Positions 51,212 through 54,101 of a DNA stretch of 64,000 bases are shown here, one piece after another. Each line of letters begins with the position of its first letter. Position 1 is the stretch's first letter. Source of the stretch: Escherichia coli. Lineage in GTDB: Bacteria > Pseudomonadota > Gammaproteobacteria > Enterobacterales > Enterobacteriaceae. Made by a program: the position numbers and the translations under genes. The notes beneath the pieces were generated by a model. That model ran no database searches and was not told the DNA's origin. It saw nothing but the letters and a program-made list of their open reading frames with translations. The DNA is taken from NCBI RefSeq assembly GCF_046105845.1, contig NZ_CP151004.1; one strand, 5' to 3'.

Positions 51212-51299
51212 GGTGAGGTGTCCGAGTGGCTGAAGGAGCACGCCTGGAAAGTGTGTATACGGCAACGTATCGGGGGTTCGAATCCCCCCCTCACCGCCA
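51212..51299 (+). tRNA. serX: tRNA-Ser (anticodon GGA), 88 nt with long variable arm
   Basis: GGTGAGGTGTCCGAGTGGCTGAAGGAGCACGCCTGGAAAGTGTGTATACGGCAACGTATCGGGGGTTCGAATCCCCCCCTCACCGCCA: acceptor stem pairs, anticodon loop CT-GGA-AA, T-loop GGTTCGAATCC, 3' CCA encoded. Confidence 0.92.
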
Positions 51300-51925
51300 T
51301 CTTTAAAGAAGAGCTCGTACGAAGGTACGGGCTTTTTTTTCGTATATTGCACACACCGGGGGATGAGAAGCCCCGACCGGGGTTCGACAACTGGCGACAG
51401 CCAGTTGGACAGACCGTGAACGCAGTGAGCGGGCTGCCCGCAGGGCGAGCGAAGCGAGTCAATCCCCCCTCACCGCCATCTTTAAAGAAGAGCTCGTACG
51501 AAGGTACGGGCTTTTTTTTCGTATATTGCACACACCGGGGGATGAGAAGCCCCGACCGGGGTTCGACAACTGGCGACAGCCAGTTGGACAGACCGTGAAC
51601 GCAGTGAGCGGGCTGCCCGCAGGGCGAGCGAAGCGAGTCAATCCCCCCTCACCGCCATCTTTAAAGAAGAGCTCGTACGAAGGTACGGGCTTTTTTTTCG
51701 TATATTGCACACACCGGGGGATGAGAAGCCCCGACCGGGGTTCGACAACTGGCGACAGCCAGTTGGACAGACCGTGAACGCAGTGAGCGGGCTGCCCGCA
51801 GGGCGAGCGAAGCGAGTCAATCCCCCCCTCACCGCCATCTTTAAAGAAGAGCTCGTACGAAAGTACGGGCTTCTTTTTCGTATATTGCACACACCGGGGG
51901 GATGAGAAGCCCCGATCGGGGTACT
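51281..51925. repeat. Tandem direct repeats, 179-180 bp unit, about 3.5 copies, each beginning with a copy of the serX 3' end and terminator hairpin
   Basis: Units start at 51301, 51480, 51659 and 51839 (CTTTAAAGAAGAGCTCGTACGAAGGTACGGGCTTTTTTTTCG...); copies near-identical; last copy degenerate (GAAAG loop, CTTCTTTTT); each unit ends with AATCCCCCCTCACCGCCATC resembling the tRNA T-arm/acceptor 3' half. Confidence 0.9.
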
Positions 51926-51928
51926 TAG

Positions 51929-52615
51929 TTAATGCAACGGTTCACCCTTTGTCGCCGCGGCTAATGGGCGAATTTTGTCACGGGTATCCCAGACCGGAGG
52001 GATTTCATCCAATTTAGTGACAGAAGCTCGTACAAAAGGCACCCGTGCAATAGTCATAATCGTATTCAACCAACGGTCACGAATAATGCGATCTGCCCTT
52101 TCATGACTCGGATCATCCAGCTCAATAACACAGACTATTTTGTTGTTCTTCTTTGAAATCAGAACATAATCCATTGCCATTCCATTATAAATTGCAAAGA
52201 AACGCTTTCTTTCTTCTTCGCTAAACTCGGGTTGTTCTGGAAAGTTGATCAAGCGCCCCAGAGAGACCTGGCAATGGATATGACAATAATGTCCAAACCA
52301 TTTCTCCAGATTATCAAAATAGATTTTTTCACAACGCGTAATTAACCACTCTTTTCCTTCCAATAAAATACCTTCGGCAACCATTCCCTGGAACAACTCA
52401 TCTCGTTCTTGCCAACGAGAGTCACGATAGGTTTTCTGCGGTGTATAGCTCCTTGTCGACGCCTTAGCCGCAGGGGAAGTTGCAGAGGAAGGGACTGGTT
52501 GCGATCTAGTGATGATTACCGATGAGGCAACTTTTCGGAGTGTCAATTTTCTGGCAACAGCAAAACCGGCGACAAATGCAATTGTCAAACAAGTTACAAA
52601 AACCATAAAGCTCAT
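51929..52615 (-). CDS. Hypothetical membrane-anchored protein (228 aa), function unknown
   Basis: ATG at 52613-52615 with AGGTGA RBS 9 nt upstream; N-terminal TM helix MSFMVFVTCLTIAFVAGFAVA, Ser/Pro-rich linker, C-terminal soluble domain with HYCHIHC and IELDDPSHERADRIIRDR; occupies the position of ycdU in K-12 (from memory) but identity not verified. Confidence 0.6.
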   Translation of the reverse strand: MSFMVFVTCLTIAFVAGFAVARKLTLRKVASSVIITRSQPVPSSATSPAAKASTRSYTPQKTYRDSRWQERDELFQGMVAEGILLEGKEWLITRCEKIYFDNLEKWFGHYCHIHCQVSLGRLINFPEQPEFSEEERKRFFAIYNGMAMDYVLISKKNNKIVCVIELDDPSHERADRIIRDRWLNTIMTIARVPFVRASVTKLDEIPPVWDTRDKIRPLAAATKGEPLH

Positions 52616-53127
52616 AATTAATCTTCACCTATCCATGTTGATTATATTTCATTACTAACGCTACTCGCTGTAGCGAGTTACATGCCAACAATTCAACGAA
52701 CTATATATAGTTAGTATCATGTTTTGATTATTACAACCATCCCTATTTTACCATTGCGGCTTGCCGTCCACAAAAAATAACAACACACAATATTAGCTGA
52801 AGAATTAATTAAGATTAACCTTATATTTTTAATATTATCCCTAAAAAATAAAATCAGGAGAATATATTCGGTGTTAATCAGTCAGTCAAATTATGGCCCA
52901 TTGCTGATTAAACCTCATACGCAAAATTGGCACCAGACCTCCTGTACAGGTTGAATGGCTGGAAAAAGATAGGCAAAAAACTCTCCGCGCTGGCGGCATT
53001 ACATTGGTCGGGTGCTATGACGAAAAATGCCTGGTAAAAGCATCTAAACCAGAATTCATTTCAGCTTATCAACACGCTCAAAGTCGCCCCCCAGAACGTT
53101 AACCTGAAGTGAAAGTCTTTGCTGTTA

Positions 53128-53159
53128 ATGAAATAAAACAAAGCCCGGTTCGCCCGGGC
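53128..53159 (-). terminator. Rho-independent terminator of phoH
   Basis: Minus-strand hairpin GCCCGG-GCGAA-CCGGGC followed by TTTGTTTTATTT, 20 bp after the phoH stop. Confidence 0.5.
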
Positions 53160-53177
53160 TCTGTACCGATAATACAC

Positions 53178-54101
53178 TTAACTGTATGCATGTAGCGTAC
53201 GTTGGCAAAGTGCCGAACGTACGCAATCCTCTTTACCGAATCGGACGATCCCGACCATTTCATCTTCTTCGAAACGTTCCAGCGCGTCACTTAATCCGGA
53301 TCGCACGCCGCGAGGCAAATCGCATTGCGTGATATCACCGTTGACGATAACCGTCACGTTCTCCCCGAGGCGGGTTAAAAACATTTTCATTTGCGCGGCA
53401 GTCACATTCTGCGCCTCGTCAAGAATGACGACTGCATTTTCAAAGGTACGTCCACGCATATAGGCGAACGGCGCAATTTCCACCTTCCCTATTTCCGGTC
53501 GCAGGCAGTACTGCATAAAGGAAGCCCCTAAGCGCCGGACCAGCACGTCGTAGACCGGGCGAAAATAGGGAGCAAACTTTTCTGCGATATCACCAGGTAA
53601 GAAGCCAAGATCTTCATCGGCTTGCAGAACTGGACGGGTGACGATAATCCTGTCGACATCCTTATGTATCAGGGCCTCTGCCGCTTTTGCTGCGCTGATC
53701 CAGGTTTTTCCGCACCCGGCTTCGCCCGTGGCGAATATCAGCTGCTTACTCTCAATAGCCTTCAGATAGTGCAATTGCGCTTCATTTCGCGCGAGGATGG
53801 GCGAGGTATCGCGACTGTCGCGGGCCATACCAATGGCTTCTACGCCGCTCATCTGCACAAGCGAGGTGACCGATTCTTCTTCACGCTGCTTATGGCTGCG
53901 CGAATCCCGTCTCAGCACACGTTTTGCCTCGCGACGAGCTTTGATCACTGCTTTTTGTCTTCCCATGGAGAGCACCTTGAGTTGTTTGTATTCATCACAC
54001 GCGCCGTTGGCAGCGCGATTATGCGCACGAACATCAGAGGGTTGGCTTCCTTGTAAGCCATAGTTTGCTTTTGGATAAAATGCCGAAAAACGGCTACGCA
54101 C
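53178..54101 (-). CDS. phoH: Phosphate starvation-inducible ATPase PhoH; N-terminal extent uncertain
   Basis: Longest in-frame ORF is 307 codons from GTG 54101 (first ATG at 53966, MGRQKAVIKARREAKR..., giving 262 aa); Walker A GEAGCGKT and PhoH core conserved; see finding on a possible 5' frameshift. Confidence 0.85.
   Translation of the reverse strand: MRSRFSAFYPKANYGLQGSQPSDVRAHNRAANGACDEYKQLKVLSMGRQKAVIKARREAKRVLRRDSRSHKQREEESVTSLVQMSGVEAIGMARDSRDTSPILARNEAQLHYLKAIESKQLIFATGEAGCGKTWISAAKAAEALIHKDVDRIIVTRPVLQADEDLGFLPGDIAEKFAPYFRPVYDVLVRRLGASFMQYCLRPEIGKVEIAPFAYMRGRTFENAVVILDEAQNVTAAQMKMFLTRLGENVTVIVNGDITQCDLPRGVRSGLSDALERFEEDEMVGIVRFGKEDCVRSALCQRTLHAYS

Follow-up and report, generated by a model that had tools for sequence, protein, structure and literature searches.

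A DUF2726 protein with a predicted membrane anchor and Vsr-like nuclease fold at the phoH–serX locus of Escherichia coli

The junction between serX and phoH in one Escherichia coli chromosome contains a single gene, and the question that it raises is what the product is and what it does. The DNA analysed, hereafter the window, is a 64,000-nt stretch of contig NZ_CP151004.1 (RefSeq assembly GCF_046105845.1), and the gene occupies 51929..52615 on its minus strand. A first-pass annotation, made from the letters alone, had described the product as a membrane-anchored protein of no recognizable family, with a possible metal-binding or nuclease-like domain and the appearance of an islet gene. This description was upheld in part: the architecture and the nuclease-like fold stand, but the absence of a family, the metal site and the islet do not. 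The protein is a catalogued member of DUF2726, a family whose assignment to a nuclease fold is already published. As to function, we tentatively propose, at a probability of roughly 0.35, that it is a membrane-tethered Vsr-like nuclease that cuts incoming DNA, constituting a single-gene exclusion or defence system.

The frame comprises 228 codons and a stop and begins with ATG, according to a program-made list of open reading frames (ORFs). A Shine–Dalgarno sequence, AGGTGA, can be read 10-15 nt 5′ of this codon (52625..52630, minus strand). Comparison of E. coli alleles and E. albertii gave a ratio of nonsynonymous to synonymous substitution rates (dN/dS) of 0.14-0.29, indicative of purifying selection; the gene is therefore more than a chance ORF. 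E. coli alleles with 5-10% divergence, E. albertii and Salmonella also have the frame unbroken and at equal length. Together with the Pfam match described below and the RefSeq annotation of near-identical genes, these data support its annotation as the coding sequence of a DUF2726 domain-containing membrane-anchored protein of 228 aa. The gene had thus been correctly called, with its start codon and good ribosome-binding site, as the sole credible ORF of the 1.2-kb segment at 51923-53134.

The first-pass annotation could not assign the product to a known family. In our hands, residues 90-205 matched Pfam DUF2726 (PF10881) with E=6e-18 and a score of 65.2, covering positions 3-116 of the 126 in the model. 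Pfam returned DUF2726 alone and not Vsr (PF03852), and scans against NCBIfam and PADLOC (the latter at E<=1) gave no match. The protein also matched phrog_14167, a PHROGs family whose function is unassigned, at 3e-12. Of 5426 complete E. coli genomes, 1049 have the same gene at 90-99% nucleotide identity, labelled “DUF2726 domain-containing protein” by RefSeq; the closest listed protein, WP_096132286.1, differs at one residue. When 1.8 billion cluster representatives were searched with a profile, 4820 relatives were recovered at E<=0.001, so that the family comprises at least 4820 clusters at 50% identity. Only 20 of these relatives reached E<=1e-30, which makes the full-length subfamily a narrow one within a large family. 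All AFDB50 descriptions read “DUF2726 domain-containing protein”. Our literature searches found no functional study of DUF2726/PF10881 and no report of metal-dependent phosphodiesterase activity for any DUF2726 protein. The sole phenotype note concerns Avibacterium, for which a screen table lists two transposon mutants that form more biofilm; it was judged uninformative.

The N-terminal region is predicted to anchor the protein in the membrane. Codons 1-29 (52529..52615, minus strand) encode a hydrophobic segment followed by the pattern RK..RK. Its best hydrophobic 19-mer begins at residue 3 with a Kyte–Doolittle value of 2.43, and AlphaFold2 modelled a helix at residues 3-29, in agreement with the single N-terminal transmembrane (TM) helix originally proposed. 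No Lys or Arg precedes the TM segment and four occur in the 10 residues after it. The anchor is a family trait: among representatives of at least 140 aa, 120/160 had a hydrophobic 19-mer within their first 70 residues, and the version of the protein found on IncF plasmids is likewise anchored. The charge bias is equally general, with a mean of 0.22 Lys+Arg in the 12 residues before the TM segment against 3.41 in the 12 after it, and more after it in 113/116 proteins. By the positive-inside rule, this bias places the domain in the cytoplasm. The predicted topology is thus N-out/C-in, with a short periplasmic N-terminus and the domain at the cytoplasmic face.

Between anchor and domain lies a predicted disordered linker (codons 30-70; 52406..52528, minus strand). 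Residues 30-64 are 63% Ser, Pro, Thr and Ala, and the predicted local distance difference test (pLDDT) score falls to 55-63, which bears out the Ser/Pro/Thr-rich linker of the first reading. The linker is the part of the protein that varies most between species. Like other members of DUF2726, the protein has the hidden Markov model match, the family signature, the invariant residues and the N-terminal anchor. By contrast, the Escherichia/Salmonella chromosomal lineage is distinguished from other DUF2726 proteins by its longer linker and by extra helices N-terminal to the core.

The remainder of the protein, codons 71-228 (51932..52405, minus strand), is modelled as a folded PD-(D/E)xK domain of the Vsr-like type. 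The AlphaFold2 model, built on a 129-sequence family alignment, had a mean pLDDT of 87 and values > 93 at residues 71-222. After the N-terminal helix and the disordered stretch, its elements are helix 94-107, strand 111-118, helix 133-144, strands 147-154 and 160-167, helix 174-190, strand 194-198 and helix 208-222, which reproduce the α-β-β-β-α-β core of the PD-(D/E)xK superfamily. Five residues are invariant among the 129 family members and all are kept here: E96 (52328-52330), D149 (52169-52171), E165 (52121-52123), H171 (52103-52105) and D180 (52076-52078), all on the minus strand. L103, L166, D168, R176 and R179 are conserved in at least 90% of the sequences. In the model, the invariant residues sit on helix α1, strand β2, strand β3 and the segment past β3, as expected of this fold. 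More specifically, β2 contributes D149 and β3 contributes E165, the position usually taken by the Lys of the motif, 167, is Asp or Asn, and the invariant H171 follows, as in the Vsr/DUF559 branch.

Two motifs had been singled out in the first-pass annotation, and they fared differently. The acidic-basic stretch VCVIELDDPSHERADRIIRDR, residues 161-181 (52073..52135, minus strand), corresponds to strand β3 and the next helix. It had been read, tentatively, as a possible metal-binding or PD-(D/E)xK-type motif. Within it, E165, H171 and D180 are invariant and L166, D168, R176 and R179 at least 90% conserved, and it is the family signature, IELDDxSH...R..RD. The other motif, HYCHIHC, is present at residues 109-115 (52271..52291, minus strand), at the start of strand β1. 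In 14 close homologues, C111 alone is invariant; H109, H112 and H114 are variable, and several homologues have Ser in place of C115. None of these residues is conserved across the 129 family members. We therefore dropped HYCHIHC as a metal site.

The link to solved structures comes from fold comparison only, as sequence searches of the PDB with the single protein and with the 129-sequence profile returned nothing meaningful. The best-scoring folds included Vsr (1cw0, 8.9), the catalytic domain of the homing endonuclease I-Bth0305I (3r3p, 8.7), the DUF559 protein NGO0050 (3hrl, 8.4) and TnsA (7.7), and three of the top six matches were RAP domains (8.9, 8.5 and 8.4). VRR-NUC domains and several type II restriction enzymes appeared lower down. 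Published classifications agree with a nuclease fold: DUF2726 was listed among the PD-(D/E)xK families alongside Vsr and DUF559 (Steczkiewicz et al. 2012; PMC3424549), and was described as a DNase of the REase fold that occurs in fusion with AbiJ-type N-terminal domains (Anantharaman et al. 2013; PMC3710099). The protein differs from Vsr, DUF559 and I-Bth0305I in having no conserved Cys/His zinc site. Vsr, moreover, is soluble and works in repair as the partner of Dcm, whereas the present protein is anchored in the membrane.

How might a nuclease benefit from such an anchor? In the mechanism that we favour, a single-pass inner-membrane protein would hold its DUF2726 domain at the cytoplasmic face by a flexible linker of ∼40 residues. 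The domain would be an active metal-dependent endonuclease, with E96, D149, E165 and H171 as its candidate active site. The tether would keep it off the nucleoid and close to the sites at which foreign nucleic acid passes through the inner membrane. Cleavage of DNA entering by conjugation, or from filamentous or tailed phage, would then result in exclusion or defence. A precedent is SNIPE, an anchored N-out/C-in nuclease that cuts the DNA of lambda while it is being injected and that is toxic without its anchor; its membrane tether is thought to prevent self-cleavage (bioRxiv 10.1101/2025.11.03.685801). The present protein resembles SNIPE in being encoded by a single gene, in having one N-terminal TM segment with predicted N-out/C-in topology and in its cytoplasmic, putatively nucleolytic domain. 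However, SNIPE contains DUF4041 and GIY-YIG domains, whereas DUF2726 alone was detected here, without a PADLOC match, and the folds are unrelated. The architectural steps of this mechanism are shown or strongly predicted; from the fold, the conservation, the genomic context and the SNIPE precedent, we infer the activity, the substrate and the biological role.

The relatives of the gene are found repeatedly on elements that move DNA between cells. In four diverged lineages of integrative and conjugative elements (ICEs; 37-46% identity), the DUF2726 gene occupies one slot, in the order DUF1525-TraU-x-x-TraG_N-(small minus-strand gene)-variable gene-DUF2726. Farther along are a tyrosine recombinase gene and ArdC or anti-restriction genes. 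The variable gene encodes Abi_2 in one lineage and otherwise an unassigned protein of 182-187 aa. In IncF plasmids, an anchored 167-aa DUF2726 protein is encoded between traT and traD, in the order traG-(traS slot)-traT-hyp-DUF2726-traD. Among the plasmids with a detectable homologue, 98/112 are conjugative. In IncHI2 and IncT plasmids, the gene is part of an accessory region, away from tra genes. Matches in phage records were confined to small Vibrio elements of 10-13 kb, one filamentous phage included, and a copy on a Vibrio diabolicus plasmid (L113) adjoins Zot, secretin and major-coat genes in a filamentous-phage-like arrangement. We found no conserved partner gene, the genes upstream in the IncF and ICE contexts being unrelated, and no partner gene within the window.

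These positions recall those of known exclusion genes. Like traS/traT of F and the Eex-TraG system of SXT, the DUF2726 homologues follow traG, traS and traT in IncF plasmids and traG in ICEs, and like exclusion proteins the DUF2726 protein is placed in the inner membrane. No sequence relationship to exclusion proteins was found. To our knowledge, the known exclusion proteins are not nucleases and block mating-pair function. With these contexts in mind, a broader and more speculative proposition is that anchored DUF2726 proteins may form a widespread, unrecognised exclusion or defence system, a fold-independent analogue of SNIPE that plasmids and ICEs carry near their exclusion genes and whose chromosomal copy beside phoH pre-dates the split of the genera.

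The same contexts could be explained if the family served the mobile element's own DNA transfer, by processing or nicking at the membrane apparatus in donor or recipient, with the chromosomal copy being domesticated or a leftover with a related housekeeping role. That four diverged ICE lineages have the gene in a fixed place after traG, and that IncF plasmids have it inside the tra operon, in the traT/traD interval, is in keeping with such a role. So is the changing identity of the preceding ICE gene, which suggests that DUF2726 belongs to the backbone and its neighbour to the cargo. However, no transfer genes occur within ∼6 kb of the chromosomal copy, yet that copy has been under purifying selection since the Escherichia–Salmonella split, and the IncHI2 and IncT copies are remote from tra genes. 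Moreover, classical F and many other conjugative plasmids transfer without a DUF2726 gene. We thus regard a transfer role as unlikely.

The RAP domains among the top fold matches raise another reading, a membrane-localised endonuclease that is RAP-domain-like and acts on RNA rather than DNA. Equally good and tighter matches are DNA enzymes: I-Bth0305I and DUF559 superimposed with root-mean-square deviations of 2.7 and TnsA with 3.2 in shorter, tighter alignments, as compared to 4-7 for the RAP domains over longer spans. The published grouping with Vsr and DUF559 (PMC3424549) also speaks against an RNA substrate, which we consider improbable.

Some homologues are associated with type VI secretion systems (T6SS), and the gene could accordingly encode a T6SS accessory or immunity protein, the E. 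coli copy being the orphan of an island like SPI-19 at serX. In a Citrobacter T6SS operon, TssM-TssA-DUF2726-TssF-TssG-TssJ-VgrG, a homologue of 53% identity lies between tssA and tssF with gaps of 18 and 28 bp. A Pantoea locus has the same gene order, an Erwinia copy lies directly 5′ of a vgrG-DUF2169-PAAR toxin, and T6SS genes occur a few kb from the gene at one Salmonella locus. Further, serX is the original insertion site of SPI-19 (PMC2907695). Nevertheless, TssF of the Pantoea locus is 97% identical to that of Citrobacter, so the two clusters represent one lineage, and the Pantoea copy is frameshifted. Salmonella without a T6SS at the site keeps the order phoH-DUF2726-ghrA-ycdXYZ-csg (L108). 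T6SS genes are likewise missing from this site in E. albertii and E. coli, the neighbours in the window being ghrA, serX, repeats and phoH-efeBOU-putP, and ICE contexts outnumber T6SS contexts. The single lineage and the T6SS-free loci of Salmonella, E. albertii and E. coli weaken this reading, which appears decidedly improbable.

Several records at these loci deserve comment. The frameshifted copy belongs to Candidatus Pantoea deserta (L023, 9953-10603); the frame is lost after approximately residue 130, and the flanking T6SS genes are intact, with 97% identity to the Citrobacter cluster. Two other records (L017, L021) are probably mislabelled or contaminated: a metagenome-assembled contig of “Collinsella sp.” that carries the E. 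coli gene at 99% identity, and a contig of “Chryseobacterium sp. 18061” on which the enterobacterial T6SS locus is the same as that of Citrobacter sp. 18056.

The history of the locus was reconstructed by comparison with E. coli K-12 and related genera. According to blastn, the segment at 51923..53134, which holds the gene, has no counterpart at the K-12 locus. K-12 instead carries at the same site a 10.9-kb block, pgaDCBA-dgcT-IS3-ymdE-ycdU (K-12 locus L004, 2101-12961). The first-pass annotation had raised the possibility that the gene was simply ycdU, and the alignment dismissed it: the best BLASTP segment between the two proteins scored 15 bits (E=1.8), and they are unrelated. K-12 YcdU (b1029) has 328 aa and belongs to the alternative pga-dgcT-ycdU block. 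Its resemblance to the DUF2726 protein is limited to its being a membrane protein without an assigned function, encoded on the serX-proximal side of the phoH–serX interval.

The two arrangements were then counted across the complete genomes. A pgaD/C probe matched 4403 genomes and the DUF2726 probe 1049; the sum, 5452 against 5426 genomes, indicates that the two states of the locus are nearly complementary, with the caveat that totals were compared and not genome by genome. The pga-dgcT-ycdU block thus replaces the gene in ∼81% of E. coli, the gene being present in roughly 19%, and this one site largely has either the PGA biofilm genes or the DUF2726 gene. The DUF2726 gene adjoins phoH in all of the E. 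coli genomes inspected. Strain E2348/69 and the O111 strain 95JB1 have integrase-bearing islands on the serX-facing side of the gene. In the window, it is bordered by csg-ycdXYZ-ghrA-serX and repeats on one side and by phoH-efeBOU-putP on the other.

The same neighbourhood extends beyond E. coli. In E. albertii, synteny holds over 14 kb, with a nucleotide identity of 88.8-89.5% for the gene and its flanks. In Salmonella, the order putA-putP-phoH-DUF2726 occurs in very many assemblies, and one locus continues with ghrA-ycdXYZ-csg (L108); the gene is 78.7% and phoH 79.0% identical to the window. In thousands of Salmonella assemblies, the product called by gene finders has 151 aa and starts at an internal Met equivalent to M78 (L107-L109, 7001-7456), a residue that is invariant in the close subfamily. 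A 219-aa ORF with its TM anchor is intact upstream, and the anchor-less form was therefore rejected as a gene-calling artefact.

These comparisons do not agree with the islet gene that had been suggested. The GC content of the gene is low (∼0.40-0.44); nevertheless, the synteny, the flank-like divergence and the purifying selection argue that it is old. Judged from these alignments, the gene is an old resident from before the Escherichia–Salmonella split, and most E. coli have since lost it or had it replaced.

The long association with phoH suggests a further possibility, that of an ATPase-plus-nuclease pair with the adjacent PhoH. The two genes are on the same strand and their adjacency is kept in E. 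coli, E. albertii and Salmonella. However, phoH has its own strong intrinsic terminator (53138..53164, minus strand; an 11-bp stem with 7 GC pairs, then a T-run), which separates its transcription from the DUF2726 gene. The spacer that follows is ∼350-560 bp long, and that of E. coli is not conserved in Salmonella. Moreover, the 81% of E. coli without the gene still have phoH, and the homologues on ICEs and plasmids, at T6SS loci and in phage-like elements have no PhoH gene beside them, so such a pair is very improbable. A decaying remnant without current function is as hard to credit, given the intact same-length ORF in E. coli alleles, E. albertii and Salmonella, the dN/dS of 0.14-0.29 and the retention of every family-invariant residue.

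The sequence upstream of the gene is AT-rich, as first described (GC 0.31 at 52600-52899). In a consensus scan of this spacer, five promoter-like sites were seen against 3.0 ± 1.8 expected. The best σ70-like site, TTGACT and TATATT separated by 17 nt (52861..52889, minus strand), agrees with the consensus at 10/12 positions and is a pattern match only. The plus strand of the spacer holds a protein-like frame of 64 codons at 52908-53102 that lacks a start codon and ends in VQVEWLEKDRQKTLRAGGITLVGCYDEKCLVKASKPEFISAYQHAQSRPPER and a stop. It had no homologue in PHROGs or among plasmids, where the only matches were self-type, in mislabelled chromosome records; the frame may be a gene remnant. Near the phoH 3′ end, Rfam matched Ysr251, a Yersinia antisense small RNA (sRNA), at 53183-53300 on the plus strand with 106 bits against a gathering score of 100. 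The match is antisense to phoH and is truncated where the searched stretch ends.

On the other side of the gene, the location beside a tRNA gene and a repeat array was confirmed. The tRNA-Ser (GGA) gene serX lies at 51212-51299, and a 179-bp tandem repeat of 3.6 copies with 98% identity, detected by TRF, extends 3′ of it at 51285..51922 on the plus strand, ending 6 nt from the stop codon of the DUF2726 gene. Each unit opens with the serX 3′ end and terminator, and K-12 shares the array. RefSeq labels the units “RtT sRNA” in 95JB1; Rfam gave no RtT match at the gathering threshold. The serX–array interval holds an IS200/IS605 tnpA in strain AF40 and the integrase islands in E2348/69 and 95JB1. 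This occupation by islands or tnpA in other strains suggests that the repeated serX 3′ ends may serve as multiple attachment sites.

The gene is in itself ordinary. Its value is as a lead into a large family (at least 4820 clusters) with a consistent architecture of anchor and Vsr-like nuclease domain, which recurs in elements that pass DNA through the inner membrane, namely IncF plasmids, ICEs and filamentous-phage-like elements. The locus documents a clean two-state polymorphism at phoH–serX, with pga biofilm genes in one state and the DUF2726 gene in the other. What the analysis yields is thus a testable hypothesis for an uncharacterised family and a corrected history of the locus. If the protein is a nuclease that guards DNA entry, it would be a second, structurally unrelated case of the membrane-localised self/non-self logic of SNIPE, and plasmid uptake could be affected in roughly 19% of E. 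coli and in many Salmonella.
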